Positions 501-24,797 are shown, counted from the first letter of the stretch. The stretch is 25,029 nucleotides of DNA from a virus (IMGVR_UViG_2802429227_000004:1-25029), one strand, 5' to 3'. Notes: generated by a model not told the origin, from the sequence alone. Translations and numbers: made by a program.

Positions 501-513
501 TATCCCTTCCCTT

Positions 514-897: not shown

Positions 898-977
898 GAG
901 CACGAGAGGGCTTCTGTTGACTTTTGTATGCTATGAAATATAATTAAAGGTTTTTTGTTTTTATCGTGTGATGTAGT

Positions 978-1421: not shown

Positions 1422-1464
1422 GAGTGCTATGTGATGATTGGTAGTAACGGTAGGTCATAGTGAA

Positions 1465-1602
1465 CTACCCCCACAGAATTCTGTTAATCTTAACTTTTAA
1501 AGAGATTTTTACCCTAACAAAATTCTGTTACCCCACCCTAACAGAATTCTGTTAGACACCCCCACAGAAAACTGTTAGACACCCCCACAGAATTCTGTTA
1601 CC
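1465..1602. repeat. Iteron family 2: 5 copies of a C-rich flanked palindrome, CCCCCACAGAATTCTGTTA
   Basis: Copies at ~1465, ~1511, ~1531, ~1557 and ~1580; core ACAGAATTCTGT is a perfect palindrome, as expected for a dimeric DNA-binding protein site. Confidence 0.7.
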
Positions 1603-2160: not shown

Positions 2161-2678
2161 ATAGCTTTATAAGCTCTCTGTAGCTCTCTGACGCAAGAAA
2201 CAGCATTCAGGAAGGGAATCACCTTAGAAAAGTGTTCTTTGCGTCATAATGTGTTTTATGAAGGATTCAGAGGTGTTTCATAACAGGAATGTATAGAGGA
2301 TACTTTAATTAATTAAAAATAAGGGGTCTAAATGCTTCTCTAACAGCATTAAGCAGGGTAGAGAATGGAAACGCATTGTCTACATATATAATCTCACTAC
2401 AGGGCTTTACAGAGCGTTTTATAAAGTGACTCTCTGTTTTATATTTACCATTACCTTCTCATACACCTAACAAATACAAAATAAGCCCCTTAAATAAGCC
2501 TCTGGCGAGCTAAACAGCCATTAGATAAGGCAATGTATTTCTTTTATCAAAATCTCGTTAGAACGCGTTTTAGAGCGTTTTAGCGGATAATGAAGAATAG
2601 CACTACACAGAAGAGCACGAATAGCTAAGAAAAAATGTAAGTGCATGAAAAAGATCAGATTTTTTATGAAAAGGTATT

Positions 2679-2712
2679 GACAAATGTTTCTTTATATGTA
2701 ATAATAGGTATT
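2679..2712 (+). promoter_or_regulatory. Sigma70-like promoter candidate upstream of 2816 gene
   Basis: TTGACA at 2679..2684 followed by AT-rich -10-like hexamers (tatatg/aataat) about 17 bp downstream. Confidence 0.3.
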
Positions 2713-2815
2713 AGAGGGACAGAAAAACATTCTTCTCTAAATAATCAAAATCAATGCACTTTGAAGCCGTCAGGCTTGCAAGGTGTTTTTCTTTTAACTG
2801 AATAAGGAGTTTTTT

Positions 2816-3004
2816 ATGAAATGGTTTACCCCGGAGCACGTCGTCTCGGCATTTAAAAAAGGTGAGCTTACACGCCACCAAGTAGTAATGAATCGTAATA
2901 TGGCAAGGAGTCGAGGTTATCCAGAGCGAGCAGCTTGCTTCAATGAAGCACTCAAGATTATTGATGAATTAAGAAAAAATGAAAAAGAATCTGAAACAGA
3001 GTAA
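2816..3004 (+). CDS. Hypothetical small protein (62 aa)
   Basis: ORF-track ORF with AAGGAG RBS 7-8 nt upstream of the ATG. Confidence 0.5.
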   Translation: MKWFTPEHVVSAFKKGELTRHQVVMNRNMARSRGYPERAACFNEALKIIDELRKNEKESETE

Positions 3005-3023
3005 AGAATAGAAGGAGAAAACT

Positions 3024-3191
3024 ATGAGCGAAACCAAGAAACCAATTCCGCGCACTTACCTACACGTTGACCCTGAAATCTTCAAGGTTTTATTTGCTGA
3101 AGCCAAGAAAAGGCAAATTATGGTCAGTGATTTGATGTTAGAAATCATTACTGAAGCAGCAGAGAACATCAAACAAAAAAAGGGTAAGTGA
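3024..3191 (+). CDS. Small ribbon-helix-helix-like (CopG/Arc-type) putative regulator (55 aa)
   Basis: Not in ORF track (<60 aa). GAAGGAG RBS then ATG at 3024, TGA at 3189..3191. Translation MSETKKPIPRTYLHVDPEIFKVLFAEAKKRQIMVSDLMLEIITEAAENIKQKKGK has a beta-strand then helix pattern typical of RHH proteins. Confidence 0.45.
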   Translation: MSETKKPIPRTYLHVDPEIFKVLFAEAKKRQIMVSDLMLEIITEAAENIKQKKGK

Positions 3192-3242
3192 TCCTCATTC
3201 ACTTTAGTAGCGCATTAAGCGTGATTTATAAGGAGATTTTTA

Positions 3243-3896
3243 ATGATTAATGAAGAACAATTTGTAAAAGTTCCTATGTGGATTCTAAAAATAAGCCAAG
3301 TAAACGGGCATAAATTTACAGATAGTGCTAAAAACCTTTACTGCTATCTGAAAGGGTTTGATCGTGCATTTCCCTCTTACGCTAAGATAGGCGATGTTTT
3401 TGGCATAACACCAAGAGCAGCAGAGGAAAGGGTTAAGAAATTGCTCGAAATGGGATTAATTATAAAAGATGCACGACCAGGAAGTTCTAATGTCTATCAA
3501 GTGGTAGATATTCCACAAGAAGAAGCTAGACAAGAAGCCAAGACACAACAAGAAGCTACTGTTAAAGCTGTTCCTGATCAGCTTCCCCCTACGGAAGATA
3601 ATAAAGAGTCTTCTTTTGATGTTCTTGATGATTGGGATGCGCCTTTGCCGTGGGAGACGGAAGAAACACCTGTTTCATCAAGTGAAAAAGTAACTAATGA
3701 TAATGAGGAGGATGTGTTAGAGAATTTTGCCTCTCTTATCTGCCAGGAGAAAAACACCAGAACAGGAGGATCATCATTTATAGAATTTGCAAATTCACTA
3801 GCTTATAGACACGGGCTAAAACGACCAAATGGTATTGAGGCATATTTTGCTAAGAAACATCCCAAAGTATATGAAGACTTTGATATTCCATTTTAA
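3243..3896 (+). CDS. Putative replication initiator-like protein with winged helix-turn-helix N-terminal domain and acidic C-terminal region (217 aa)
   Basis: AAGGAG RBS; N-terminal segment (VPMWIL...NLYCYL...YAKIGDVFGITPRAAEERVKKLLEMGLII) resembles HTH domains of plasmid/phage Rep proteins; acidic DVLDDWDAPLPWETEE tail; sits next to iterons. Confidence 0.5.
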   Translation: MINEEQFVKVPMWILKISQVNGHKFTDSAKNLYCYLKGFDRAFPSYAKIGDVFGITPRAAEERVKKLLEMGLIIKDARPGSSNVYQVVDIPQEEARQEAKTQQEATVKAVPDQLPPTEDNKESSFDVLDDWDAPLPWETEETPVSSSEKVTNDNEEDVLENFASLICQEKNTRTGGSSFIEFANSLAYRHGLKRPNGIEAYFAKKHPKVYEDFDIPF

Positions 3897-3907
3897 TAAG
3901 GAGGGTT

Positions 3908-4186
3908 ATGATTCAATATTTAGTAAAAAATCAAGTAGACAGAATTCAGTGTAATGACACAGGAAAACGCATCTACGAAACACTTGCTTACCTCTATAAA
4001 GGAAAGCCAACACCGCTAAAATATAGCGATGTGTTACATCGAGCAGGGTGCTCTGAAGATGGTTTAAAATTCTGGCTGAAACAGCTATCAAACTTCGGTG
4101 TTATAGAGATTAAAGAATTATCTTTCTCTACATTCAATCTCAAAAGACTGGATAAAGAAATAGACTTCATCTATTCCACTCTCTAA
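3908..4186 (+). CDS. Hypothetical protein (92 aa), possibly a small DNA-binding protein
   Basis: ORF-track ORF with AAGGAGGG RBS; immediately follows the Rep-like gene. Confidence 0.5.
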   Translation: MIQYLVKNQVDRIQCNDTGKRIYETLAYLYKGKPTPLKYSDVLHRAGCSEDGLKFWLKQLSNFGVIEIKELSFSTFNLKRLDKEIDFIYSTL

Positions 4187-4318
4187 AATCTCTCTATGTA
4201 ATTAAAATATAAAAGGAAAACATTATTATGATAGTAGCTATGTATTGGTTATTGTTCTTTCTCACGTTAGAAACATATTTCGGGGTGTTTTCCTTTAAAA
4301 GAAAAGGAAAAGTAAATA

Positions 4319-4726
4319 ATGGCAAAAAGAAAAAACAACGTTGTTAAGAAAATCGGTGATTCAGCTTCTCTTCTAAGTAAACCTAAATCTATTCTAAGAC
4401 GTAAAGACTTTAAAGAGCTAGTTACGCTCACCAAGCATAATAGCGCCCCTGGCGAATGGAAAACAGAGATCATAGAACATTCTCCCTCTGTGCCTTGTGG
4501 AGATGAATTTAACGCCTTACAAGAAATCTTATCTTCAACACCTGGCGTATTCTGGAAACCTAGAAAAAGAAAAGAGTATATTGTTAGTTCTGACGAACTC
4601 CGCAAATACCAGATTTTAGGATTTGAAGACTATAACCACTACGTCGGTTATCTCGCCACCAATGGCCTAAATAATTTAGTTCCTGAATTCCATTTAGATA
4701 ATGATGATCACTATGGAGACTTTTAA
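4319..4726 (+). CDS. Hypothetical protein (135 aa)
   Basis: ORF-track ORF, basic N-terminus; antisense ORF 4267..4605 treated as a shadow. Confidence 0.5.
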   Translation: MAKRKNNVVKKIGDSASLLSKPKSILRRKDFKELVTLTKHNSAPGEWKTEIIEHSPSVPCGDEFNALQEILSSTPGVFWKPRKRKEYIVSSDELRKYQILGFEDYNHYVGYLATNGLNNLVPEFHLDNDDHYGDF

Positions 4727-4727
4727 T

Positions 4728-5063
4728 ATGAACAAAAACACGTATGACACAATTTATTCACTAATTAATTATTATGAGGATGATTACCTCCTGCCTTTAA
4801 ACCGTGCTGAACTTGAAGCACACAAAAACTCCACGCCAGCGGCACTAAATGAGGCGTTTAAACACTGGGATTTAGCTGTGAATGCCTTTGAGATGCTCTG
4901 TAAGCGTGTAGAGATGCTCTGTAAGCGTGAAAACGCATACCTGACAGCCGATCAGATATGGGAGCTATCAAACTGGATAGAAGATATTGAATCTGATGTT
5001 CGCTATGTGGGAGATGGCCTTATCGAACTCGCTCAACGCTTAGCCATTATCACAGAAGAATAA
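4728..5063 (+). CDS. Hypothetical protein (about 111 aa) containing a 21 bp tandem duplication
   Basis: ORF-track ORF 4701..5063; ATG at 4728 preferred because it follows the upstream stop with GGAGA about 10 nt upstream. In-frame tandem repeat gagatgctctgtaagcgtg at 4890..4931. Confidence 0.5.
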   Translation: MNKNTYDTIYSLINYYEDDYLLPLNRAELEAHKNSTPAALNEAFKHWDLAVNAFEMLCKRVEMLCKRENAYLTADQIWELSNWIEDIESDVRYVGDGLIELAQRLAIITEE

Positions 5064-5092
5064 AAAAAGCAACAAAAAAGTTGTAAAATATC

Positions 5093-5121
5093 TTGACATT
5101 TCATATATTGTATGTTAATAT
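5093..5121 (+). promoter_or_regulatory. Strong sigma70 consensus-like promoter
   Basis: TTGACA (5093..5098), 17 bp spacer, TAATAT (5116..5121). Confidence 0.6.
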
Positions 5122-5127
5122 AATTAT

Positions 5128-5345
5128 ATAGGGTGATTATTTTTCCTTTATTGGTTCGATATTAAAAATTCTTCTTGTCGTTAAAGGGGAGTAAAATCTC
5201 CGCTCCCCGCTTCTCCTCCTCCTTAAGTGTCATTATTACCTCTTTTTTCCTTTGTTATGCATACATCTTGGAGTATGCATAACATAGGGTAATTACATAG
5301 GTACAAGTTAATAAAAGGCGGCTCTAAATGCTGCCTTTTATTTTG
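5128..5345 (+). ncRNA. Candidate small RNA or structured leader/attenuator (about 215 nt) between promoter and intrinsic terminator-like hairpin
   Basis: Begins just downstream of the 5093 promoter; hairpin ggggag...ctcccc (~5186..5208); perfect palindrome ttatgcatac-N8-gtatgcataa (5255..5282); hairpin aaaaggcggc-tctaaat-gctgcctttt followed by a T-rich run (5313..5345); no convincing ORF on the + strand. Confidence 0.3.
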
Positions 5346-5406
5346 CCCGTTATACAACTTAAAAGTTGTATTTCTTACTTTAAACAAGGTAACAAGGTTT
5401 ATATAA

Positions 5407-5619
5407 ATGTTGTTTTTAAATGATAAAGAGCAAATCATCAAGTATCGCGATGAAATGCTAAAGATCAATCCACAAATTACCGAAATGGTAGCTAAATACG
5501 CTGGGTGTTCTGTCGAAGAAGTGGAACGTTGTGTTGAAAAATATTTTTCTCCTTCTTCTCCGTCTACACCTTCCCTTAATGAATTAATCAAATTAAAAGC
5601 TAAGGAGATTACTAAATGA
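5407..5619 (+). CDS. Hypothetical small protein (70 aa)
   Basis: ORF-track ORF; 4 nt ATGA overlap with the next gene suggests translational coupling. Confidence 0.45.
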   Translation: MLFLNDKEQIIKYRDEMLKINPQITEMVAKYAGCSVEEVERCVEKYFSPSSPSTPSLNELIKLKAKEITK

Positions 5620-5978
5620 TTATTGATTTAGACACTCTATTTCCAGTTCGAAAGACTTTCACAGATATTGTAAGTTATTGTACTGATCCGTTTGCCTCTG
5701 TAGAAAGCAAGGTTTTTGCTTCTCTTCCTGCTGATGTTGAATGCGGCGACTTGATCACCAGAACTGGCGCTAAATATGTATCAGGAGATGATATCTATGT
5801 TGTTATGAGTGAGTTTTTAACGGCTGGAGACAACAAGCCTGTAGATGTGCTACGTAGCAATGCTGGCCTTGTCTGCATCAAAGCTGATGCGCTGAATGCT
5901 GTAAGTGAAGCAGCAAAAACAGCATTAATTAAAAAAGGCTTCCAGCTTGAAGGGTTCCACTCTGTTTTCACTTCTTAA
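5616..5978 (+). CDS. Hypothetical protein (120 aa), first gene of a putative structural-like module
   Basis: AAGGAG RBS; tightly linked to the 342 aa gene. Confidence 0.55.
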   Translation: MIIDLDTLFPVRKTFTDIVSYCTDPFASVESKVFASLPADVECGDLITRTGAKYVSGDDIYVVMSEFLTAGDNKPVDVLRSNAGLVCIKADALNAVSEAAKTALIKKGFQLEGFHSVFTS

Positions 5979-5996
5979 TAAAAGGAATAATAATAA

Positions 5997-7025
5997 ATGA
6001 TTCTAGGCAATGATTACGTTGATTTGATCCCTCTGTTCCAGGCACACAACACTAGAAATTATCTACTCTCTACCCTTGATTTTACGGATTCTGTAGGGGT
6101 TACATCTCATAAAGTAGCTGTTTCCCAGCTTGTCGAAAGCAACGAATCTCTCTTTAACAAAGAGACAAGCCGTTTTAGTTCTGAACACAATGTTACTAAG
6201 CGTGAACAAGGTAAAGAATGGCTTATTGAAATCCCGTATTTTCTTCGTGAAGATGTGATCCGTCCTTCTGATGTTCAAGGCAAGCGTAAGCCTGGCACTG
6301 ATTTTCAGGAAACACTCACTGATATCTATGCTGACTATGTTGCTAAACACCACGTAGCGTATCAGCGTACAAAAGAGAGCGTGTTGGCGGCTTCTTTGTT
6401 CTCTGGCAAAACTTACACGCCTAAAACTGATGATGTTCTTATCGAGTGGGGCAAGCTGTTTAACGTATCAGCTATGAAAGCCACTGTGAACGCTTCCAGC
6501 ACTGACACCACGAAGATTTTTAAAGAATTTGATCAGATTGCTACCAATATTTTTGAAATCACACAAAGCCAGGCGTCAGCGGTAGAAAGAATTGTTGTTT
6601 TCTGTAAACCGGAAGCCTTCTCTGCAATTCGATTCTCTGCGGGTATGGCAAACGCATTCCAGTATGTAAGCCCACTGGAAGAAGGGAACGTTGTGTATCA
6701 GCGTCGTGACCTGCTGCCAGGGGTGACAGCGTTCACTATTCCAGGAACTAACATTGATGTTATTAAACTGGTAGATCCGCTACATCTTGCACATATGACC
6801 GCAGACGCTGTAGCTGTGCCTAAATTCGCTAAAGGCTCTAACGTATATCAGAACATCTACGGGGCTGCTTCCAGCACCTTTGAACTGATTAATGCCGCTC
6901 CCGCTGAGGTTTATAGCTACAGCTATGAATCTTCTCGTGGTGATGCTGTTAACGTTGTTACAGAGAATAGCCAGATGGTTGTAAACCACGGTGTAGGCTT
7001 CTCTGTTCAAATCACTGTGAAATAA
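5997..7025 (+). CDS. Hypothetical protein (342 aa); tentative homolog of the HK97-fold major capsid protein family of T7-like phages (gp10-like)
   Basis: Long ORF with RBS. Segment RIVVFCKPEAFSAIRFSAGMANAFQYVSPLEEGN (DNA about 6585..6700) matches, from memory, the T7 gp10 region RVFYCDPDSYSAILAALMPNAANYAALIDPEKG (pattern FCxPxxxSAI...MxNAxxY...EG); similar size to gp10A. Not verified by any search. Confidence 0.5.
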   Translation: MILGNDYVDLIPLFQAHNTRNYLLSTLDFTDSVGVTSHKVAVSQLVESNESLFNKETSRFSSEHNVTKREQGKEWLIEIPYFLREDVIRPSDVQGKRKPGTDFQETLTDIYADYVAKHHVAYQRTKESVLAASLFSGKTYTPKTDDVLIEWGKLFNVSAMKATVNASSTDTTKIFKEFDQIATNIFEITQSQASAVERIVVFCKPEAFSAIRFSAGMANAFQYVSPLEEGNVVYQRRDLLPGVTAFTIPGTNIDVIKLVDPLHLAHMTADAVAVPKFAKGSNVYQNIYGAASSTFELINAAPAEVYSYSYESSRGDAVNVVTENSQMVVNHGVGFSVQITVK

Positions 7026-7043
7026 TATTTTAACGTGTAATAG

Positions 7044-7080
7044 AGGCGTGGCGTGTATTCACGCTTCGCCTTTTTTTATT
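7044..7080 (+). terminator. Rho-independent terminator candidate after the 342 aa gene
   Basis: ggcgtggcgtg-tattc-acgcttcgcc imperfect hairpin followed by ttttttt. Confidence 0.5.
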
Positions 7081-7111
7081 TATTTTTTAAATTTTGAGAG
7101 GTGATTAAAAT

Positions 7112-7315
7112 ATGGAAGTGATTTTGAAATCAAAAAATGGTTTACACGTACATTTAGATGCTAATGATTCTAGAGGCTTGTTAAATCTGAAATATCTATG
7201 TTCTCTTTTAGATGTTCCATATGAAGGCGTAAAAGCCCGTATGTTCAGACTAAACGAGAGTATTGATCAGGCTCTACACCATTTCTTAAGTAAAGAAGGT
7301 GGTAAAAATGATTAA
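7112..7315 (+). CDS. Hypothetical small protein (67 aa)
   Basis: ORF-track ORF with GAGAGG RBS region. Confidence 0.45.
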   Translation: MEVILKSKNGLHVHLDANDSRGLLNLKYLCSLLDVPYEGVKARMFRLNESIDQALHHFLSKEGGKND

Positions 7316-7329
7316 TAAGGGGATTTTAA

Positions 7330-9162
7330 ATGTTAGAAATTAACACTTCTAAAATTAAGAACACAGTTACATTTAGTGTAGATAAAGACAGCTTGAAAAA
7401 AGCGAAAGACTCTATTACAGGCTTAAAGAAATTCGCCGAAAATATCAAGCCAGCTAAGCTGAGATTTGATAGTGTCACTAAAGGCTATAAGAAAGCACAA
7501 AGTGAAGTAGACAAGATTGCTCAACAGAAAGCTAAAACAGAAAAGCAGAATCAAAGAGCACAAGCTGCCGCAGCAAGAGCACAGGCAAGGCAACAGCAAC
7601 AAATAGCAGCACGTAAAGAGAAAGCAGAATTAAAGCTCCTCGATGTGTCAAGCTCTATCAGTGCAATGCACCGCCTTTCTGTAGCTGAACAATACAAAGC
7701 TATTGCACAGGCGCGTGAGATAGCCAAACAATACGAACAAGGGGCTATCTCGCTTGCACGTATGAATAGTCAGATGAAACGCCTACAACAGCAACAACGT
7801 AAGATTAATGGCAACAGAAAAGCTCAATTAGCCCCCGTTAAGGGAGGATCAGGGAATTCCGCCACGATGGGCGCTCTGTTATTTGGAGGCGCTACGGCTG
7901 CCGCTGGCGTGATGGCTGTTAGTAAAGCCTCTGAATTTATGGCTAACAGCTTCGCTAACGCAGAGACGCAAGGGGAGCTAATTCAACGGGCCAAGCTGGG
8001 CGGTGTAGACGTTAACCAGATGTATAATATTACAGAATGGGCGTATAAAAACGGCGTTGACTCTATGATGGGTGATCAAGGGGCTAGGAAATACCTGGAT
8101 CAGATGAAAGATGTTAGGGAACGTGCCGCAAAATCCTATAGTGAAGCTGAATTGGTGAAAGACAAGAAAACCGGAAAATCTGAATGGAAAGGCGGTGATA
8201 ACGCTATTAATGAACTTCTAAACATCGGTGTTATTAACAAAAGCGACCTTAAAAAATTTGCTGATAATCCGGCTGGATTAATTTCTAAGGCTGTTAATGG
8301 AATGATGAAAAAAGGGTTTTCAGACTCCCAAATTGGACAACGTTTAGAAGACCTGGGCGATGATTTGATGCTTACGTCAAAATATTGGCAACGTTCCGTT
8401 AAAGATGTACAAGAAAGTATTAATCAGCAAAAAGCCTCTGGAAAATGGCTAACAGAAACACAGCAAGACTCTATTGTTAAATTCAGAGAACTAAACAGAC
8501 AGCTTTCACAGCTTTCTGATGCAAGACAAGTAGCATTCGTAGACGGCTTTATGAAATCTCTTGATCCAAAAGTAACGGAAGAGTTTATGAAAAACCTTTC
8601 TAATCTCACTCCGTATTTTACGAAGCTGGGAGAAGCTACAGGAAGTCTCTTTGAGGCCATTATGAAGATTGTAAACTGGTTTAATCGTAATGATGATAAG
8701 ACAGATGCTATTCAGAAAAATTTAGGTGATGCACCGCCATTAAGCAATGACGGAATGAAACAGCATCTTTCTAATCTCGTTCCTGATCAATATAAAGGCG
8801 CTGGCACTGCAACAACAGCACCTGATAATAGTCATTCTCTCTTTAATACGATTAAGGGATGGCTTTTCGATGATAATGCTTCTTCTGTGTCAGATGTAAA
8901 AATGTCAGTCAATGAAGCACCGATAAGCAATCTCAAACAGGGTGCTTTAAATAATCTTGCAATGACAACTCCGGCTTATAATTTATCTCCTGTGTTTAAT
9001 CTGAATCCTACATTTGAAGTGGTAACAGAGGTTCCTCTTACTATTAATTCAGACACATCAAGATTAAGCGATTATGTGGATTTTACAGCGAGAGCAAGTC
9101 GGGATAGCTTCTTGAAATCATTAACATTAACCAGCTTATCAGGACAATCTAACGGCGGGTAA
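7330..9162 (+). CDS. Hypothetical large protein (610 aa): N-terminal K/Q/A-rich coiled-coil region, Gly/Ala-rich hydrophobic segment, then C-terminal globular region; tape-measure-like or ejection/internal-virion-like architecture (tentative)
   Basis: AAGGGG RBS; AQAAAARAQARQQQQIAARKEKAELK coiled-coil-like stretch; GGSGNSATMGALLFGGATAAAGVMAV hydrophobic segment; no Walker or nuclease motifs seen. Confidence 0.6.
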   Translation: MLEINTSKIKNTVTFSVDKDSLKKAKDSITGLKKFAENIKPAKLRFDSVTKGYKKAQSEVDKIAQQKAKTEKQNQRAQAAAARAQARQQQQIAARKEKAELKLLDVSSSISAMHRLSVAEQYKAIAQAREIAKQYEQGAISLARMNSQMKRLQQQQRKINGNRKAQLAPVKGGSGNSATMGALLFGGATAAAGVMAVSKASEFMANSFANAETQGELIQRAKLGGVDVNQMYNITEWAYKNGVDSMMGDQGARKYLDQMKDVRERAAKSYSEAELVKDKKTGKSEWKGGDNAINELLNIGVINKSDLKKFADNPAGLISKAVNGMMKKGFSDSQIGQRLEDLGDDLMLTSKYWQRSVKDVQESINQQKASGKWLTETQQDSIVKFRELNRQLSQLSDARQVAFVDGFMKSLDPKVTEEFMKNLSNLTPYFTKLGEATGSLFEAIMKIVNWFNRNDDKTDAIQKNLGDAPPLSNDGMKQHLSNLVPDQYKGAGTATTAPDNSHSLFNTIKGWLFDDNASSVSDVKMSVNEAPISNLKQGALNNLAMTTPAYNLSPVFNLNPTFEVVTEVPLTINSDTSRLSDYVDFTARASRDSFLKSLTLTSLSGQSNGG

Positions 9163-9195
9163 TTCCCGCCATAACATTACAAGGAAATTATTATT

Positions 9196-9909
9196 ATGGC
9201 GACCGCCGGGATTTTAACCATACGTGCAGCAAATACTCCAGAACAACACGTTCAGGCTGTTTACAAAGCAGAACAAGATATAAACTCTACAAAAAACGAA
9301 AATAGCAAAGCTAATAAAACAAAAGGAGAAAATGGATTTGCTATTGTTACCAGTGGGCTGGCATCTTCTGGCAATGACGTTTATGAAAATTATATGGCAC
9401 TGGCTTTTGACAGTGTAGACGATGTGAACGTGAGACGTTCGGCAGATGTTACAAGCTACCCCGTAGAAAATGGTGCTACTGTGTCTGATCACGTTCAAAT
9501 TAAAAACAATAAGTTTTCTCTTAAAGGTAGGATCACTGAAACACCGATTAAAAGCGATCCTGGCTTGCTAAAGAGTGCAGGGGTGAACGGGAACAGAAGA
9601 TCATTAGCTATTGATTACCTGAATCAGATTATGGACAGTAGACAGCCTTTTCTTCTTGTTACAGAAAATAAAACTTTTGAGAACGTTGTTTTAACAGGCA
9701 TCGAATACACAGAAGAGGCAAGCGAATCCCTGGTATTTGATCTTAGCTTTGAGCAGATCAGGCTCGTTTCGTATGGCACTGTAAACACTGTAGCTATCAA
9801 AACACAGCCATCTAAGAACATCGGGGCTAATATGAAAAAACGTGTTAACACTGAAAAATCAAGTAGTGAAGGTGAAGACACTATTACTCCTGCCTTTAAA
9901 CAGGAATAG
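9196..9909 (+). CDS. Hypothetical protein (237 aa), last gene of the + strand operon
   Basis: AAGGA RBS; no signal peptide; followed by an inverted repeat shared with the convergent integrase gene. Confidence 0.55.
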   Translation: MATAGILTIRAANTPEQHVQAVYKAEQDINSTKNENSKANKTKGENGFAIVTSGLASSGNDVYENYMALAFDSVDDVNVRRSADVTSYPVENGATVSDHVQIKNNKFSLKGRITETPIKSDPGLLKSAGVNGNRRSLAIDYLNQIMDSRQPFLLVTENKTFENVVLTGIEYTEEASESLVFDLSFEQIRLVSYGTVNTVAIKTQPSKNIGANMKKRVNTEKSSSEGEDTITPAFKQE

Positions 9910-9950
9910 CCGTAAACGCCTCTAAAACGCTCTGTAACGATGTAATTATA

Positions 9951-9984
9951 AAAGAGGCTACCAATCTATGTTGAAGCCTCTTTA
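9951..9984. terminator. Inverted repeat between convergent genes (possible bidirectional terminator)
   Basis: aaagaggct ... agcctcttt, a perfect 9 bp stem with a loop of about 16 nt. Confidence 0.35.
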
Positions 9985-9990
9985 TTGCGT

Positions 9991-11325
9991 CTATGGCGTT
10001 GTTTTACGCCTTAAATTTGATTTTTTATTGATTGATAAGCCTTTCTCTATTTCAGGGTAGCGTAGAAGCTCAATATATTTTTTAAGCTCTACTGGAGAAG
10101 CTGCATTCTTGCTATATGTGCGGAATGTCTCTGTATTACCGCGTGTATGGCCCAGGAGAAGGGCGATCCTGTCTTCTGGAATTTGATTTCGATCAAGAAG
10201 CTGTGCTACTCCGTGTCTCAGAGAATGAAACACCTTCCTTTCTGTTCCCTTTTCCCCTAAAGCCTTTCGTTTAGCCCTGGTAAATCTCTGCGTGTGCCAC
10301 GTGGAACGCTTGCCGTCTGCACGTTCTGTGATGCTGGCGTGATAGAACAAAAAGCCATTATGAGGCTTTTCACGCAGCGACAACACCAACGGAGTGATAA
10401 GGCTATGTACAGGCACAACACGTGCCGCAGCTTTCGTTTTTCCCTGTGTGATTTCAAAACACAGCACACCTTCGATCTCTTTCACATCGTCTATTGTGAG
10501 ACTTGCTATCTCATTGATCCGCATACCTGTATATAAACCGATAAGACACAAAGCCATCATTTCTTTGTTTTCTGCTGAATTACCGGAAAATACTTGCAAC
10601 ACCTGCAATAGCTCTTTGTTAGAAAATGCCTCGTAGCTCTCTCTACTTTGTGCCACATCAAGCCTATGCCCTCGCCAGGGGGAGAGCGCCCTTTCTGGTG
10701 CATCGTGGTAACGTGATGAAGCTAACTCCCATAGCTGGGCCATTGGGCTGATATAATTTGCAATTGATTGTTGTGAAAGGGTTTTTTGCATGTGTTCAAT
10801 CCAGCCTGTAACAGTGGTGCGGCTCACATCTTGCAATGCAATATCAGGCTTTTTACGGTAGGAGAGAAACATCTCTACCGCTTTTCTTGCCTTAGCTAAA
10901 GTGGCTGGCTTCTTCTTCGTGCTGTTAATTGTCAGGTAGATTTCAAGAATTTTAAGCAATGACGGACACGAAGACGCTGTATCTTGCATTCTGGTAGCTG
11001 TTTTGGCGTATTTAGCCTTACTGCGTAACAGCTCCAGCGTGTTCTCTATTGTGCTGTTTACAGGAGCGACACTCTCGCGTAAGCAATGGTATTCATCTGC
11101 AATCTGATCACGCTTTCTACGTGCAACACGAAGGTTACTTGTATGCAGACTCCTGACAAACGTCCTTTTTCCTTCAAAAAAGGGCTGCATATACACAGGC
11201 AGCGTGATCCTTAGATAGTAGTTACCGTAAGAATCACAGATTATGTATTGATTGGGCTTGTATCTCATAAACTCCCCGGCTAAAGTGTCGGAGCGTTTGT
11301 AATGTGAAAATTGATTGTAACGCAT
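9991..11325 (-). CDS. int: Tyrosine site-specific recombinase (integrase), 444 aa as given; alternative start at the second Met (about 11268)
   Basis: C-terminal catalytic signature: GMRINE (Arg), HSLRHGVAQ (His-x-x-Arg), LLGH (His), TFRTYSK (Tyr nucleophile). Confidence 0.85.
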   Translation of the reverse strand: MRYNQFSHYKRSDTLAGEFMRYKPNQYIICDSYGNYYLRITLPVYMQPFFEGKRTFVRSLHTSNLRVARRKRDQIADEYHCLRESVAPVNSTIENTLELLRSKAKYAKTATRMQDTASSCPSLLKILEIYLTINSTKKKPATLAKARKAVEMFLSYRKKPDIALQDVSRTTVTGWIEHMQKTLSQQSIANYISPMAQLWELASSRYHDAPERALSPWRGHRLDVAQSRESYEAFSNKELLQVLQVFSGNSAENKEMMALCLIGLYTGMRINEIASLTIDDVKEIEGVLCFEITQGKTKAAARVVPVHSLITPLVLSLREKPHNGFLFYHASITERADGKRSTWHTQRFTRAKRKALGEKGTERKVFHSLRHGVAQLLDRNQIPEDRIALLLGHTRGNTETFRTYSKNAASPVELKKYIELLRYPEIEKGLSINKKSNLRRKTTP

Positions 11326-11447
11326 AGAAAATGATGATTTTTTCTATAAGATTCAATCAATTAGTAATGGTCGTAGGTGATGGCATTAACACGAGATTAA
11401 TCGAGTGTTTTACTCCTATTATCGGCACCATTCTAACGTCTCCCCAA

Positions 11448-11597
11448 GTCTACTCAAGTATTTAAAAAACTCTTATAATCCGCATGTTAGCGCCCCTTTT
11501 AGTCTTTTGATGTCTACTTAAGTACCCCAAAATCTACAGTCAATTGGGGGTACTTTTGGGGGTATTTGCTGTTCGGTTTAGTGGAGGTACCCCCAAG
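11448..11597. repeat. Direct and inverted repeats in the 271 bp spacer between the two integrase genes (candidate att core or integrase binding sites)
   Basis: gtctactcaagta (11448..11460) and gtctacttaagta (11512..11524); inverted pair taccccaaaa (11523..11532) / ttttgggggta (11553..11563); extra ggtacccccaag at 11586..11597. Confidence 0.5.
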
Positions 11598-12811
11598 TGA
11601 AACTCAATGCCCGTCAAATAGACACTGCCAAGCCAAAAGAGAAGGCTTACAAGCTGGCTGATGGTGGTGGTCTGTATCTCTTGGTAAAACCTAGTGGAGG
11701 AAAATATTGGCGCTTCAAATATCGTGTAGCTGGTAAAGAGAAGCTGTTAGCACTAGGTGTGTATCCTGAAGTTACCTTGGCTGATGCTCGTGCAAAACGT
11801 GAAGAAGCTAAAAGGGGGATCGCTGGGGGTATCGATCCGATGGAAGCGAAACGAGAGGAAAAGATTGCCCGGGAAACGCAGTTAAACAACACCTTCAAAG
11901 ATATTGCCCTTGAGTGGCACAGCAGCAAATTAAAAAAATGGTCTGCTGGTTATGCTTCAGACATCCTCGAAGCCTTCAACAAAGATGTGTTCCCTTACAT
12001 TGGCAAAAAACCAATCGCCGAAATCAAACCACTTGAACTGCTGAATGTGCTGCGGCGCATCGAGGGGCGCGGTGCTACCGAAAAAGCCAAAAAAGTGAGG
12101 CAGCGATGCGGGGAAGTTTTCCGCTATGCAATTGTCACTGGACGTGCTGAGTATAACCCTGCACCGGATCTCACCAGCGCGATGCAAGGTCATGAATCTA
12201 ATCATTATCCTTTCCTCACAGCCAAAGAATTACCTGATTTTTTCAAGGCATTGTCCAGTTACTCAGGAAGTGCATTGGTTGTTATGGCGGCTCGTCTACT
12301 GATTATCACCGGTTTGCGGACTGGCGAACTGCGCGGTGCATTATGGGATGAAATCGATCTCAACAAGGCTATCTGGGAGATACCTGCTTCACGGATGAAA
12401 ATGCGTCGCCCTCATGTGGTGCCTTTGTCTAAGCAGGCTCTTTCGCTTATTGGGCAGATTAAAGAATTAACTGGCAATTATCCGCTTATGTTTCCCGGCC
12501 GTAATGATCCAAGGAAAACAATGAGCGAGGCTAGCATAAACCAAGTATTTAAACGCATCGGCTATAACGGAAAGGTTACTGGTCATGGATTCCGGCACAC
12601 CATAAGCACCATTTTGCATGAGCAGGGCTATAACACCGCGTGGATAGAGACACAGCTCGCACACGTCGATAAAAACTCAATTCGTGGCACATACAACCAT
12701 GCGCAATATCTGGATGGTCGCCGGGAGATGCTCCAGTGGTATGCCGACTATATGGATTCGCTCGAGCATGGCGGAAATGTGGTGCATGGTGAGTTCGGAA
12801 AATGCGGGTGA
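11597..12811 (+). CDS. int: P4-type tyrosine integrase (404 aa), GTG start
   Basis: N-terminus KPKEKAYKLADGGGLYLLVKPSGGKYWRFKYRVAGKEKLLALGVYPEVTLADARAKREEAK is the hallmark arm-binding domain of P4-family integrases; catalytic HGFRHT ... QLAHVD ... RGTYNHAQY. Confidence 0.9.
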   Translation: MKLNARQIDTAKPKEKAYKLADGGGLYLLVKPSGGKYWRFKYRVAGKEKLLALGVYPEVTLADARAKREEAKRGIAGGIDPMEAKREEKIARETQLNNTFKDIALEWHSSKLKKWSAGYASDILEAFNKDVFPYIGKKPIAEIKPLELLNVLRRIEGRGATEKAKKVRQRCGEVFRYAIVTGRAEYNPAPDLTSAMQGHESNHYPFLTAKELPDFFKALSSYSGSALVVMAARLLIITGLRTGELRGALWDEIDLNKAIWEIPASRMKMRRPHVVPLSKQALSLIGQIKELTGNYPLMFPGRNDPRKTMSEASINQVFKRIGYNGKVTGHGFRHTISTILHEQGYNTAWIETQLAHVDKNSIRGTYNHAQYLDGRREMLQWYADYMDSLEHGGNVVHGEFGKCG

Positions 12812-13881: not shown

Positions 13882-14079
13882 ATGGCAAACTCTCTTATTC
13901 GTTTAACGGAAGTTCAGCGTAGAACTGGATATAGCAAGGCATGGATTTATCGCCTTATGGGGCAAGGTAAATTTCCTGCATCAGTTAAAATTGGCTCGCG
14001 AGCTATTGCTTTCGTTGAGAGTGAAATTGACGAGTGGATTAATCAGCGTATTGCGGAATCACGCGGAACAGCTACCTGA
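13882..14079 (+). CDS. alpA: AlpA-family phage transcriptional regulator/excisionase-like protein (65 aa)
   Basis: LIRLTEVQRRTGYSKAWIYRLMGQGKFPASVKIGSRAIAFVESEIDEWI matches the AlpA HTH family; position just after a P4-type int; AAGGTGA RBS. Confidence 0.85.
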   Translation: MANSLIRLTEVQRRTGYSKAWIYRLMGQGKFPASVKIGSRAIAFVESEIDEWINQRIAESRGTAT

Positions 14080-17535: not shown

Positions 17536-17826
17536 ATGAAAAGGAAAAATTCTGGCTTTACTGCCAGCGGTCTCTCTCGGCCTGAAATCAGACACGGAGA
17601 TATTTACCGCGACACCAGACGTGGGGGACGAGTGGTTATTCGTCACGTTACGCCAGGCAATATCACCTACCGCCGTGAGGCTTACGAATATGACTGCGTA
17701 ATGCCGCGCCGTCAGTTTGAGCGTGATTTTATTCTGGTGGAAAACAAACAACAGGCAGTGGCGAGACGTGCAGCCACGAATATTAAAAAAATCCGGGCAA
17801 TGTTGGTTGCGGGAGGTAAGAAGTGA
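17536..17826 (+). CDS. Hypothetical basic protein (96 aa) immediately upstream of the primase
   Basis: ATG 5 nt after the upstream stop; 4 nt GTGA overlap with the primase gene start. Confidence 0.55.
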   Translation: MKRKNSGFTASGLSRPEIRHGDIYRDTRRGGRVVIRHVTPGNITYRREAYEYDCVMPRRQFERDFILVENKQQAVARRAATNIKKIRAMLVAGGKK

Positions 17827-19628
17827 AAAACGCACCGAATTTAAAATATCAGCCGAAGGATAAATTCACCGAGGTAATCATTTTTGCCGGGACGGATGCT
17901 TACGCCCATGCTCAACACTGGATTGAAAGCGAAGGACGAAAACACGGCGATAACGTGCCTCCTGTTTACCTGGGGCCAAAGCAACTGGCAGACCTGGCGA
18001 ATATCCGCATTGTCGACGATGAACGCCGCTTTGCGCGTGTCTATCTCGCGGGGGAGATAGAGCCAATCCAGATCAATGCTATTGCTGAAAAGCTGGCGCT
18101 GGCTGGTGTACAGGACGCGAAATTATACAAAGGTATCACCGACCGGGAGCCGGAAAACTGGCGCGACTACCTGCAACGGATCCGCGAACAGGCAGAGAGT
18201 GGGGAAGTTTCAGCGATGAAATTAGCCACAAAAAATATTGACCTATCTAGGCCAGCACTAAATCAGATGGGAGCCAGCCAGAGAGGGGAAGTGTTACTTG
18301 AATATTATGGAAGAGCACTGGCTATAAATGATGATTCTGATGTAGTTCACCATTACAACGGAATTGTCTGGGTGCCTGTATCTGATAAGGAACTCCAGCG
18401 GTCTATGGCGAAGATTTTTATTGATGCTGGAATCAGTTATTCGCAAAACGCCATTAAATTTGCCGTAGACACAATGAAATTGAGCCTGCCTGTTATGGGC
18501 GGGGCAGACAGGAATCTTATTGGATTCAGTAACGGGGTATTTGATACCCGGACGGGAAATTTTCGGGAGCATAACAAAAATGACTGGTTGTTAAATGCCA
18601 GTGAATTACCGTTCAGCCCACCAGCAGAGGGGGAAACGCTGGCAACACATGCGCCGAATTTCTGGAAGTGGCTGCGTCGTTCGGTGGCAGATAATGATCG
18701 TAAAGCTGATCGCGTACTGGCGGCATTATTCATGGTGCTGGCGAACCGGTACGACTGGCAGTTATTCCTTGAGGTAACAGGCCCAGGCGGAAGCGGTAAA
18801 AGTGTGATGGCTGAGATTTGTACCATGCTGGCGGGTAAGGCCAACACAGTATCGGCAAGCATGAAGGCTCTGGAAGACGCAAGGGAACGCGCGTTAGTAG
18901 TTGGCTTTTCGCTGATTATCATGCCGGATATGACTCGCTACGCTGGCGATGGTGCAGGAATTAAGGCAATTACTGGCGGCGACAAGGTGGCAATTGATCC
19001 GAAACATAAAGCCCCCTACTCCACACGTATTCCGGCAGTAGTGCTTGCGGTAAACAATAACGCCATGTCATTCAGTGACCGAAGCGGGGGGATCTCGCGT
19101 CGTAGGGTGATATTTAATTTCTCTGAGGTCGTACCGGAGAACGAACGCGATCCCATGCTGGCGGAAAAGATAGAAGGCGAACTGGCGGTAGTGATTCGCC
19201 ATTTGCTAACACGATTTACCGACCAGGACGAAGCTAAAAGACTACTTTATGAGCAGCAAAAATCAGAAGAAGCGCTGTTGATAAAGCGCGAAGGTGATTC
19301 ACTGGTGGACTTTTGCGGCTATCTGATGTCGTTGGTTAAATGTGAAGGAATGATGGTGGGCAATGCGGAAATAGTGCCATTTAGCCCGAGGCGATACCTG
19401 TATCATGCTTATTTAGCCTATATGTCAGCGCATGGCCTGGGAAAACCAGTATCACTGACACGCTTTGGTACTGATATGCCAGGAGCTATGGCGGAATACG
19501 GAAAGGAGTATAAGCGGGCTAAATGCACTAAAGGCCCGGATAAAGGGCGAGTGATAACAAATGTTCTGTTAGATGATGATGCTGATGGCTGGTTGCCAGC
19601 AGCTACAGGGATTAACGACAGAACATAA
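17823..19628 (+). CDS. Phage/plasmid primase-helicase, P4 alpha/D5 family (601 aa)
   Basis: Walker A P-loop VTGPGGSGKSV in the C-terminal half; overall size and architecture of satellite pri-rep proteins; followed by an iteron origin. Confidence 0.8.
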   Translation: MKNAPNLKYQPKDKFTEVIIFAGTDAYAHAQHWIESEGRKHGDNVPPVYLGPKQLADLANIRIVDDERRFARVYLAGEIEPIQINAIAEKLALAGVQDAKLYKGITDREPENWRDYLQRIREQAESGEVSAMKLATKNIDLSRPALNQMGASQRGEVLLEYYGRALAINDDSDVVHHYNGIVWVPVSDKELQRSMAKIFIDAGISYSQNAIKFAVDTMKLSLPVMGGADRNLIGFSNGVFDTRTGNFREHNKNDWLLNASELPFSPPAEGETLATHAPNFWKWLRRSVADNDRKADRVLAALFMVLANRYDWQLFLEVTGPGGSGKSVMAEICTMLAGKANTVSASMKALEDARERALVVGFSLIIMPDMTRYAGDGAGIKAITGGDKVAIDPKHKAPYSTRIPAVVLAVNNNAMSFSDRSGGISRRRVIFNFSEVVPENERDPMLAEKIEGELAVVIRHLLTRFTDQDEAKRLLYEQQKSEEALLIKREGDSLVDFCGYLMSLVKCEGMMVGNAEIVPFSPRRYLYHAYLAYMSAHGLGKPVSLTRFGTDMPGAMAEYGKEYKRAKCTKGPDKGRVITNVLLDDDADGWLPAATGINDRT

Positions 19629-19655
19629 TACGAAATTTATAAGCTGAAACGTAAA

Positions 19656-19991
19656 GGTAGACGGTTGGTAGACAGATTCACTTAACCCTCTACCAACCAT
19701 CTACCAATTAATATTTTGAATTATAAAGATATTTTCAATGTAGTAGAGAGGTAGACAGTTATTTCTATATTCCTAAACCACGGGGGGTATATAAAAAACA
19801 GATAGTTAAGGGGGCATTTTTTAAATTTCTCTTTTAACTGTCTACACTGTCTACCATTTAGTAAAAATCATTAATTATCAATGTATTAATGCGGTAGACC
19901 GTTGGTAGACAGTTTGCAGATTGTTTTTTTGTTATGTGTTAATAACATTAAATAAATCAATCAATTATATCGGTAGACAGTTGGTAGACAG
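19656..19991. repeat. Iteron-type origin: about 6 direct and inverted copies of GGTAGAC(A/C/G)GTTGGTAGACAG
   Basis: 19656..19675 direct; 19689..19704 inverted; 19750..19760 half site; 19839..19856 inverted; 19893..19912 direct; 19972..19991 direct; separated by AT-rich DNA. Confidence 0.75.
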
Positions 19992-20011
19992 TTGTAACGA
20001 TGGGGCAAAGC

Positions 20012-22759: not shown

Positions 22760-22927
22760 ATGAAAAATCACGGAGTAAAGCCAGTTTTACTTTCCCGGAG
22801 GCAGATCGAAGCCCTGCAACGCATCCAGGACGAAGAGCGTCAGAAATCTGTGCTTGGTGTGGCACCGTCGATTCATGTTATCGCTCGGCAACTGATGGAT
22901 AAGGCACTTAAAGAGGTGAGACTGTGA
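22760..22927 (+). CDS. Hypothetical small protein (55 aa)
   Basis: ATG at 22760 with AGAAGGGA RBS; the ORF-track ORF 22598..22927 extends upstream through the operator repeats and is not credible there. Confidence 0.5.
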   Translation: MKNHGVKPVLLSRRQIEALQRIQDEERQKSVLGVAPSIHVIARQLMDKALKEVRL

Positions 22928-23295: not shown

Positions 23296-23823
23296 ATGTT
23301 GATGAGTAAAGCCGAATACGCCAAATACAAAGGCGTAAGCCGCCAGACAGTTTACGACTGGCTCGAGAAAGGCGAAGTGGTCATGTCCGGTAAAAAAATT
23401 GATGTGGAAGCGACAGAGCAGCGGAACAGCCCACCAGCACAGGGGAAAGACACCATTTCTGAAATGTGGCCAGAAAGAACGCTGGAAATGACATGGGGCG
23501 AGTTCTGGAAAGCAGTTAAGGCCAGAGACGGTAAAATTCCTGCGCCAGTAACGGACGAGGGCATACAGCAGCGTGTGCTGTATGCAGCCGGGGAATTAGG
23601 CTGGGAAGTGCACTTTCTTGATGATGGTGCTATCTGCCTTGAGGATGATGAAGGGCAGCATTACTTTGAAAAATACAATTTGCGAGGTAATGCCAGGCTG
23701 GCAATTCGTATGCTGCGTTGCGAACTCTGCTATGTTGCAGGTGATTATCCCGATGAACCGGAATCATGGAGTGAAGCCGGGTTAAACGCCCTGGCTGAGT
23801 GGGAAAAATCAGACCATCAATGA
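23296..23823 (+). CDS. Winged-HTH DNA-binding protein resembling the N-terminal domain of lambda terminase small subunit Nu1 (about 175 aa); candidate packaging-redirection (Rpp/TerS-like) protein
   Basis: MSKAEYAKYKGVSRQTVYDWLEKGEVV aligns, from memory, with lambda Nu1 KKQLADIFGASIRTIQNWQEQGMPV (pattern A-x-x-x-G-x-S-x-x-T-x-x-x-W-x-E-x-G); GAGGTGA RBS 6 nt before the ATG at 23296; similar size to Nu1. Confidence 0.55.
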   Translation: MLMSKAEYAKYKGVSRQTVYDWLEKGEVVMSGKKIDVEATEQRNSPPAQGKDTISEMWPERTLEMTWGEFWKAVKARDGKIPAPVTDEGIQQRVLYAAGELGWEVHFLDDGAICLEDDEGQHYFEKYNLRGNARLAIRMLRCELCYVAGDYPDEPESWSEAGLNALAEWEKSDHQ

Positions 23824-24115
23824 CATCAAAAAGTGTCAAGTTGAGCAGCTTGCCAGCTTGCCAGCTTGCCAGGTTGACACTTTACACTCTGAACGCGAAA
23901 AAGTGTCAACCTCGCTGTAAGCCCCGCAATTACTGGGTTTGTGCCAGATTTACCACGTCAAAAAGCCGAAAAAACCGCGAAAAATGTCAAGTTGCCATGC
24001 TTAGAAATGCTAAGGTTTTTCGCGAAAAAGTGTCAAGTGTGTCAACCTGCGATATTAAGATTTATTAAGGTCTTAAGCCGGAAAGTGTCAACCAGCCCCC
24101 TAAGATTTCCTAAGG
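23824..24115. repeat. Array of at least 7 copies of (A)AAGTGTCAA(C/G) in both orientations plus AGCTTGCC x3 and TAAGATTTnnTAAGG repeats; candidate packaging (cosB-like) or binding site array
   Basis: GTGTCAA cores at ~23833, 23873 (inverted), 23903, 23984, 24030, 24038, 24084; cgcgaaaaagtgtcaa occurs 3 times; cttgccagcttgccagcttgccagg at 23849..23873. Confidence 0.75.
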
Positions 24116-24212
24116 TGTGATTGGACGTGCTGTAACCTTCTTGTCGCAATGTGGATGAATGACTATAGTGCTGGTAGCTTTGACAGCAGAATCAGATTAC
24201 TGAAGGAAATGT

Positions 24213-24797
24213 GTGATGAGTTTTTTTAGTCTTTATGGGAAAGAACTATTTTCTTTTTTTATAACGATTTTAACATGGATACTGAATAACAGATTTAAAA
24301 GCAAGGCAAAGTTATCCTATGGTTATCAGCATGGATTTACTTTTCTTCTCAATGAACCCTTACGGAATGCCAATGGTGAGGTAATATCTAATTCACAGTT
24401 GGTGTATACACGATCTATTATTCTTGTTAATGAAGGGCGAGAAAGTGCTACTAATATCTCATTGGTTTTTAACTATAAGCCAATGCATATTAATTTTTGG
24501 CCTGTCCACCATTTTGAAGAAAATATTGAACAGGATGGTCGCTATATTATCAAGTTTGAAAGCCTTGCACCTGGTGAGTCTATTCAATGTGAAATATTAT
24601 CAATAAATAGAGAAGTTCCAAGTATTCTATCGATAAGATCTAAAGAGTGTGTGGCTGAGCCAGTGAATATCGTGATGCAAAAATCGATTAGTAATATTGC
24701 CCTACGTTGCTATCAATTATTAATACTTCTTGGAACTGGCACATTAACATATTTAATTATCGTTATTCTGCAATGGTTAGTCACTAAAACGGGATAA
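24213..24797 (+). CDS. Low-GC hypothetical membrane protein (194 aa) with N-terminal and C-terminal hydrophobic helices
   Basis: Strongly AT-rich coding sequence; FFITILTWIL near the N-terminus and LLILLGTGTLTYLIIVILQWLV at the C-terminus. Confidence 0.6.
   Translation: MMSFFSLYGKELFSFFITILTWILNNRFKSKAKLSYGYQHGFTFLLNEPLRNANGEVISNSQLVYTRSIILVNEGRESATNISLVFNYKPMHINFWPVHHFEENIEQDGRYIIKFESLAPGESIQCEILSINREVPSILSIRSKECVAEPVNIVMQKSISNIALRCYQLLILLGTGTLTYLIIVILQWLVTKTG

Follow-up and report, generated by a model that had tools for sequence, protein, structure and literature searches.

Does a phage satellite from Escherichia coli carry its own packaging-recognition module in place of any known one? 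The question is raised by the viral sequence IMGVR_UViG_2802429227_000004:1-25029, the whole of which (25,029 bp) is called the window here. It includes a satellite of the phage-inducible chromosomal island (PICI) type, in which a gene for a 175-amino-acid (aa) protein is followed directly by an array of short repeats. We conclude with high confidence that these are a conserved pair of DNA-binding protein and site array belonging to PICI-type satellites. At a probability of about 50%, the best explanation of the pair is a packaging-recognition module with its own pac- or cosB-like site. The module would be functionally analogous to Rpp, yet outside the Rpp family. Rpp (redirecting phage packaging) proteins, namely RppA/B/C, are known from E. 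coli PICIs of the cos type, EcCICFT073 among them (Fillol-Salom et al., 2019, PMC6739421).

The protein, the array and their pairing

The first-pass annotation had placed a Nu1-like protein beside an array of GTGTCAA repeats, and both are real: an open reading frame (ORF) at 23296-23823, preceded by a GAGGTGA Shine-Dalgarno sequence, adjoins a field of boxes. The features are as follows.

23296..23823, plus strand: gene for the 175-aa two-domain protein (TerS-type winged helix-turn-helix, HTH, plus an orphan alpha/beta domain)
23296..23424, plus strand: N-terminal winged-HTH DNA-binding domain, aa 1-43, with the putative recognition helix GVSRQTVY
23425..23469, plus strand: variable linker, about aa 44-58, gapped in the family alignment; predicted local distance difference test score (pLDDT) below 50 at aa 45-56
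23470..23820, plus strand: C-terminal alpha/beta domain, aa 59-175, without known relative
23824..24116, both orientations: array of 8 AAAGTGT(C/A)AA(C/G) boxes, 293 bp, directly after the stop codon
23830..23910: left sub-array, flanking the variable (CAGCTTGC)n tract, with boxes at 23830-23840 (plus), 23872-23883 (minus) and 23900-23910 (plus)
23846-23869: (CAGCTTGC)x3 octamer tract, between the inverted pair of boxes
23880-23887, minus strand: GTGTAAAG box, overlapping the inverted box at 23872-23883
23919..23941: central block AAGCCCCGCAATTACTGGGTTTG, conserved and not repeated, lying between left and right sub-array
23981..24116, plus strand: right sub-array of three composite units, each with one or two GTGTCAA boxes and yTAAGAwwTnyTAAGGT 6-9 bp later; boxes at 23981-23991, 24027-24037, 24039-24046 and 24082-24092
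24000-24016, 24056-24071 and 24101-24116: second motif, yTAAGAwwTnyTAAGGT, two TAAG half-sites about 10 bp apart

RefSeq annotates the same 528-nt gene as "hypothetical protein" in the E. coli genome that is closest. We identified 112 homologues, all from Enterobacterales (besides Escherichia, in Klebsiella, Serratia, Pantoea, Enterobacter, Rouxiella and Raoultella) and nearly all unnamed or "hypothetical"; every one starts with MLMSKAEY. A literature search found no paper describing the family. The AlphaFold2 model, built on a 54-sequence alignment, has two domains (pLDDT 87.9). Conservation in the family is concentrated in the N-terminal domain, where S15, R16, Q17 and Y20 are invariant and V14, T18, V19 and W22 nearly so.

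This domain belongs to the TerS/Rpp class of winged HTH domains. The PHROG search returned small terminase (TerS) family PHROG 57 as the best TerS match (E 5e-6), with TerS PHROGs 3218, 24579 and 2538 and weak Cox, excisionase and MerR matches alongside. A tblastn search of 50,697 phage records gave two matches only, both "Nu1" small terminases of cos myophages (vB_SspM_BZS1 and phiNP). Over aa 3-40 the identity to these is 47% and 45%, respectively, with N-termini in register and a pairwise E of 1e-9. The Nu1 likeness proposed for the N-terminus thus holds for these phage terminases and for PHROG 57, and is weak for Nu1 of lambda itself (34% identity across 32 aa, with N-termini in register; pairwise E 8e-4). 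Similarity to Rpp is limited in these comparisons: 29% over 35 aa by BLASTP against RppA (E 0.06), and 28 HTH columns at 48% probability when the two family profiles were aligned with hhalign. Neither phmmer nor a family-profile search of the PDB found RppC or Nu1 even at E 10, chance matches only being returned, and a Pfam search of the protein gave sub-threshold HTH matches only. In structure, the winged HTH resembles the DNA-binding domain of lambda TerS. The comparison with Nu1 and Rpp that had been suggested gave like winged HTH domains and a different C-terminal fold.

That the C-terminal part would not resemble Nu1 was borne out: beyond aa 40 we found no similarity to Nu1 or to the BZS1 TerS. 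Residues 59-166 fold as beta-alpha-alpha-beta-beta-beta-alpha-beta-alpha, and the domain modelled alone reaches a pLDDT of 95.3. A search of BFVD with this domain gave nothing at E <0.1. In an exhaustive HMMER scan of 1.84 billion representatives it was found in only 20 clusters, and because nearly all of these have the same 160-185-aa architecture, its other contexts are uninformative on function. The N-terminal domain is elsewhere fused to other C-terminal parts, as in three tandem paralogues of Lelliottia (L016 2386-2514, 4192-4320 and 6001-6129; related loci are cited by L numbers) and in a 215-aa version in a PICI of Serratia aquatilis (L015 6001-6648).

The boxes are concentrated directly behind the gene. 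GTGTCAA is present in six copies in 23833-24091 and one in the remaining 24.7 kb of the window. All six copies of AAAGTGTCAAS at one mismatch or fewer lie in 23830-24092, and 0 of 100 shuffles reached this number. Allowing degenerate boxes ([GA]TGT[CA]AA[CG]), eight of the 11 window-wide copies fall in 23833-24092, six on the plus and two on the minus strand. The seven or more cores in both orientations reported at first correspond to these eight degenerate boxes, and to six strict ones. The further repeats mentioned there were also found, as the (CAGCTTGC)x3 tract and the three TAAGAwwTnyTAAGGT units. The CAGCTTGC octamer, with three copies in the window, has one in L005, L036 and other Escherichia relatives, and the tract behaves as a variable-number repeat inside the array. 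Other genera keep the inverted pair of boxes around a spacer that reads ACGAAAC..GACAGG. Between the sub-arrays, about 70 bp are free of boxes. The central block is recognisable as AAsCCsCGCCrTTACTGGnTTTr in the window and in L009, L010, L012, L014, L015 and L056, and may be a cleavage site or a site for a host factor, cleavage being a conjecture. The composite of box and TAAG unit recurs in L010, L012, L014, L015, L017 and L018.

For the pairing of gene and array, we used relatives from 19 loci of GTDB genomes and 80 of IMG/VR, with homologues down to 38% identity, and limited the count to the 83 loci with at least 350 bp beyond the stop codon. At least three boxes lie within 350 bp after the homologue's stop in 74 of these 83 loci. 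Boxes number 13.4 per kb after the stop, against 0.10 per kb over the other 10-20 kb of these loci, and are thus enriched 130-fold locally. In two exceptions (L009 and L012) the box cluster is found about 1.5 kb further downstream, in L012 through an insertion sequence-type insertion that splits the gene, and in L015, whose homology is confined to the N-terminal domain, a GTGTCAA cluster lies 3.7 kb downstream. Boxes are kept where the flanking DNA can no longer be aligned, in Rouxiella, Raoultella, Buttiauxella, Pantoea (mostly as GTGTAAAC), Serratia and Klebsiella. This persistence across genera fits the conserved residues of the recognition helix. Among 22 distinct Escherichia variants, conservation is 95% in the boxes, 81% at other array positions and 91% in the last 300 coding nucleotides. 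Co-inheritance thus argues strongly that the 175-aa protein binds these boxes, and the array is probably its binding-site field, as judged from sequence. It is also a candidate packaging recognition site of the pac or cosB-like kind.

The host satellite and its packaging slot

The pair sits in an element with int, alpA, a D5-type primase and synteny with EcCICFT073, which upholds the PICI-type satellite context assumed in the first-pass annotation. We located EcCICFT073 in the CFT073 genome; its gene order and several of its proteins match the window satellite, with identities of 44% for the primase, 49% for PerC and 52% for DUF4222. The order in EcCICFT073 is PerC, capsid, decoration, X, cos1, rppA, cos2 and a small last gene. 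In the window, PerC is followed, after other genes, by the 175-aa gene, the array, cargo and a homologous small last gene. The 175-aa gene thus takes the place that rppA and cos have in EcCICFT073. The whole 297-bp gap between the homologue and the small last gene is filled by the array in minimal relatives. The module's position in its carriers is the packaging slot, the boundary beyond which defence genes and other cargo insert. In the SatelliteFinder model of PICIs, a terS homologue is the last core gene and accessory genes come after it (PMC10085698). In a subset of E. coli relatives, a DUF2213 gene is directly upstream of the homologue (L190 13334-14005; also L038-L047, L052-L054 and L014). 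Its product matches phrog_6216 (function unknown) strongly and the head-maturation-protease phrog_530 weakly (E 5e-5), and such a neighbour would place the 175-aa gene in a morphogenesis/packaging module.

RppA, Nu1 and the EcCICFT073 capsid gene were found in 0 of the 95 loci carrying the 175-aa gene, and no homologue of this gene was found in EcCICFT073. The lambda cosN 12-mer has nothing closer than three mismatches in the window. Among related loci, exact matches were found only in the CFT073 control locus (L004), which also yielded both EcCICFT073 cos sites, and 12-mers with one or two mismatches are scattered away from the array. The array had been called cosB-like; in the strict sense this label is unsupported, because cosN of the lambda, BZS1 or P2 type is absent from the window and, at the mismatch limits applied, from the surroundings of the array in the related loci. 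Some IMG/VR contigs end at the gene's stop codon, and we judged these ends to be provirus-trimming artefacts, not termini.

The window consists of two tandem islands at the thrW tRNA-Thr site, with a partial tRNA 3' end (about 11415-11432) between them. The second of these is a phage satellite of the Gram-negative PICI type in E. coli. It has int, alpA, pri-rep and then ori, co-oriented genes, a length of 10-20 kb and a specific att site, and it is free of a phage structural and lysis set. The other features of the window are listed here.

1-11430: first island, between the thrW tRNA-Thr site and the PICI
5997-7025: gene annotated "major capsid protein", first island
7330-9162: 610-aa ORF, first island
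9196-9909: gene annotated "phage baseplate protein", first island
9991-11325, minus strand: 444-aa tyrosine recombinase, first island
11597-12811: integrase, second island
13882-14079: AlpA, second island
between AlpA and the primase, second island: AntA-type antirepressor, Icd-like gene and DUF4222, in this order
17823-19628: D5_N/DUF5906/Pox_D5 primase-helicase, second island
19640-19995: satellite replication origin, an AT-rich GGTAGACAGTT iteron field (28-34% GC) directly after the primase-helicase gene
after the primase-helicase: ProQ/FinO, PerC, lipoprotein and small ORFs, the 175-aa gene, the array and cargo, in this order

At least 80% of the first island (1-11430) is present in 224 complete E. 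coli genomes. In the second island, AlpA is the protein described as an activator of PICI excision (PMC6092414, as cited within PMC10111431), and the origin comprises at least 12 copies of GGTAGAC(A/C/G)GT in both orientations. PICI origins have been reported downstream of pri (PMC10111431). The cargo 3' of the array varies. In the window it is a predicted 194-aa membrane protein (24213-24797), and the closest E. coli relative (L001) also has a GapS1 defence gene before the island end (L001 18717-20315). An Rfam scan of the window gave zero matches.

A 54-aa ORF (window 22763-22927) accompanies the 175-aa gene in 72 of the 95 loci, at times from a position kilobases upstream. Visual inspection suggests a ribbon-helix-helix-like pattern, and Pfam and PHROG returned no match. 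Speculatively, its product could be a second DNA-binding protein, for the TAAG-type motif. When the DNA of the whole island was searched against the phage records, the sole match was the primase in the 16.5-kb record LR881103.1 ("Escherichia phage vB_KppS-Ant, induced prophage"; 77% identity to the satellite primase). This record is probably a packaged PICI rather than a phage.

Proposed packaging role, possible helper and rival explanations

In the packaging module that we favour, induction of a helper phage would lead the satellite to express the 175-aa protein, whose N-terminal small-terminase-type winged HTH would bind the seven to eight AAAGTGT(C/A)AAS boxes beside its own gene. The nucleoprotein complex so formed would mark the satellite's replicated DNA for packaging. 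Its orphan C-terminal domain may let the protein dock onto the helper terminase, either TerS or the large subunit TerL, and the helper motor would initiate on satellite DNA and not on phage DNA, with the array in the role of a pac site or of cosB. Conjectural in this scheme are the recruitment of the terminase, what the C-terminal domain does and where the DNA is cut.

The genomic neighbourhood of some relatives suggests which phages could be helpers. In five Klebsiella-type loci (L057, L065, L066, L067 and L069), the satellite is inserted inside the major-head gene of a myovirus-type prophage. In L067, head residues 1-135 are encoded upstream (117-521) and residues 120-313 downstream (11801-12382) of an 11.3-kb insert; the split in the head gene falls at about codon 135 and comes with a duplication of 16 aa, and the homologue and array are at the far end of the insert. 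The satellite of L058 is inserted in a baseplate-wedge gene, and two Pantoea loci (L055 and L007) as well as L079 adjoin Mu-F-like and TerS genes of the same phage type. Such loci are helper-embedded PICIs in the sense of PMC10111431. An uninterrupted phage (L188) encodes a phrog_370 TerS, a Terminase_3 ("PBSX family") TerL, a Phage_portal_3 portal and a Mu-F/SPP1 gp7-like protein. A head module of this kind is associated with headful packaging, and the prophages hosting the embedded relatives are probably headful. Given this, and the absence of a known cosN, headful (pac-type) initiation is more likely for the module. The Rpp/cos-type mechanism that had been envisaged thus gives way to a pac-type one for the embedded relatives, whose presumed helper has a PBSX-type terminase.

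Several observations weigh against a packaging role. The C-terminal domain is unlike the oligomerisation domains of TerS and unlike the Rpp coiled coil, and it has no homologue among the phage records; contact with a terminase is therefore pure inference. Scans of the window and the related loci for cohesive ends of the lambda, BZS1/phiNP and P2 types did not identify a cosN or terminus within the mismatch limits, and the DNA of the region is unmatched among the phage records. Each box contains, on the opposite strand, the -35 consensus TTGACA. The DNA-binding domain of the presumed helper's TerS in L188 is unrelated to the satellite protein, so mimicry in the style of Rpp, with a domain-for-domain mimic that forms heterodimers with TerS of the helper at a cos site, cannot be general and is unlikely for the embedded relatives. 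Finally, packaging is inferred from context, and no sequence feature directly demonstrates it. More plausible for the embedded relatives is a self-contained specifier that brings along a pac-like site and contacts the helper terminase through its C-terminal domain.

Arrays of this kind are also found in phages. The terS gene of L188 has its own GTACGCA heptamer array (about 9990-10120, minus strand), and in BZS1 and phiNP, cosN is followed at once by an array of 8-9 GGTAACA heptamers within which the terS gene lies (L024 48-303; L025 3974-4232). Heptamer arrays beside or inside a terS-type gene thus recur in three cases. These heptamers run into the coding region and encode low-complexity linkers, GNK-type from GGTAACA and GTQ-type from GTACGCA. 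In those phages, a single stretch of DNA appears to serve as packaging site and as TerS linker.

Among 5426 complete E. coli genomes, the PBSX-terminase phage type was detected in 157 and the satellite module in 167 (about 3%). Two 60-row samples share at least four accessions, against about 0.7 expected, one of the four being a helper match at only 11% coverage. This co-occurrence is suggestive only, because the shared accessions appear clonal and the counts come from 60-row samples. Prophages with a BZS1-type TerS were not found on viral contigs carrying the satellite.

The main rival to a packaging module is a Cox/MerR-like transcriptional regulator that coats the array and represses or activates promoters of the downstream genes (conserved last gene and cargo) or an antisense promoter, with no packaging role. 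We regard it as rather unlikely. The protein shares the winged-HTH fold class with Cox and MerR, some homologues are annotated "MerR family" in RefSeq, and the array of minimal elements runs right up to the last gene's start codon; the TTGACA opposite every box fits a regulator too. However, the region has no more promoter-like matches than chance would give (4 found, 4.3 expected), and a field of seven to eight boxes spanning 290 bp, with a conserved central block and a second motif besides, is in our judgement large for an operator. The array also stays at the 3' end of the 175-aa gene whatever follows, whether cargo, the last gene or a prophage late gene. The only phage relatives of the domain by sequence are terminases, and the position is the rpp/cos slot. 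Should the protein be a regulator only, the array would be a well-defined yet ordinary operator array.

Much less probable are roles in recombination or replication. A recombination directionality factor (excisionase) would be a small single-domain winged-HTH protein with sites near the att core, in the attR or attP arm. The 175-aa protein shares the winged HTH, but it has an extra 115-aa domain in an island that already encodes AlpA. About 4 kb of genes stand between the array and the island end in L001, the closest annotated relative; in embedded relatives the array lies 0.4-1.3 kb from the junction, too far for an intasome arm, and insertions of cargo between the array and attR are tolerated. 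An excisionase is therefore very improbable. Scarcely more can be said for a replication or maintenance element, be it a second origin, a cis enhancer like crr of P4 or a partition centromere. The short repeats in both orientations are iteron-like, a near-DnaA box (TGTGGATGA) is present at 24148-24156, and P4-type primase satellites need a distant cis element, crr. Yet the crr of P4 repeats the motif of its ori, whereas the satellite has a complete iteron origin of unrelated motif directly after the primase gene. An origin of this type is AT-rich and adjacent to a rep gene, as is 19640-19995; the array has a GC content of 0.42-0.50 and neither property. The near-DnaA box belongs to cargo-specific sequence and not to the conserved array, and a ParA-like ATPase or Rep gene is absent from the annotation of L001. 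The first-pass annotation had named a replication origin in the repeats as evidence that would speak against packaging; with the origin found elsewhere and built on an unrelated iteron, this objection fails.

If the 175-aa protein is a packaging specifier, it would be a new marker for satellite annotation and a clean test case of a TerS DNA-binding domain re-wired through a new adaptor domain. Its array would be a cis site for building transducible plasmids or "drones" for a different helper class. EcCIMP1 indicates that such elements can function although their packaging mechanism is unknown (PMC11773190). A more tentative proposal, which we hold to be somewhat doubtful, is that the module is a third, previously undescribed solution to satellite packaging, in which a TerS-derived head, an orphan adaptor and a multi-box pac site form a portable unit. 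If true, PICIs without recognisable terS, rpp or cos would be packaged by headful myoviruses with PBSX-type terminases, whose TerS recognises different DNA. This would explain the spread of at least part of the "Type C" PICIs, a large class without known packaging genes.

Relation to known packaging systems

Functionally, the closest known system is Rpp with the cosB of its PICIs, followed by TerS of Staphylococcus aureus pathogenicity islands (SaPIs) and GpsA/B of PLEs (elements resembling phage-inducible chromosomal islands). The idea of a pair analogous to Rpp is retained in that the gene lies in the same rppA/cos slot and the pairing with an array is conserved across genera, and is given up as regards family membership. 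The protein is outside the Rpp family in sequence, C-terminal fold and cos context. Homology to Rpp is limited to the 28 HTH columns, and the C-terminal domain is alpha/beta, whereas that of Rpp has three helices, including a long coiled-coil helix for dimerisation and contact with TerS. Rpp proteins bind the TerS of the helper, block packaging of the phage and are needed for transfer of the PICI. The window gene also lacks flanking lambda cosQ and cosN, and its sites are an array of seven to eight boxes downstream of the gene, in contrast to the upstream cosB of Rpp.

The likeness to TerS of the Nu1 type begins with the N-terminal 40 residues, which are homologous and in register (47% for BZS1, 34% for Nu1). 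It extends to overall size (175 versus 181-199 aa) and to the succession of a DNA-binding domain, a flexible linker and a second domain. As in BZS1 and phiNP, short repeats are arrayed next to the gene or within it, binding of the window array being putative. Five of seven positions agree between the satellite core TGTCAAC and the phage heptamer's complement (TGTTACC), a resemblance that parallels the 47% identity of the domains and is suggestive only. In contrast to Nu1-type TerS, the window protein has neither a helical oligomerisation core nor a TerL-binding C-terminus. The island is without cosN, an adjacent terL or any terminase large subunit, and no terL is annotated in L001. The protein is not a canonical TerS, as it departs from one in everything beyond the DNA-binding domain.

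The layout of the array recalls the pac site of phage P1, in which seven hexamer repeats form two clusters flanking the cut. In the window, clusters of three to four boxes on the left and four on the right flank the conserved non-repeated centre of about 70 bp, with a motif different from that of P1 and no involvement of Dam sites. SaPI TerS is a satellite packaging specifier for headful phage and a true homologue of phage TerS throughout, whereas only the DNA-binding domain of the window protein is TerS-like. GpsA and GpsB of PLEs are reportedly satellite-encoded packaging specifiers for a headful helper. In concept, the module proposed here would be like both: a satellite protein and a satellite pac site redirect the large terminase of the helper. 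This likeness fits the PBSX-terminase prophages that host the embedded relatives.

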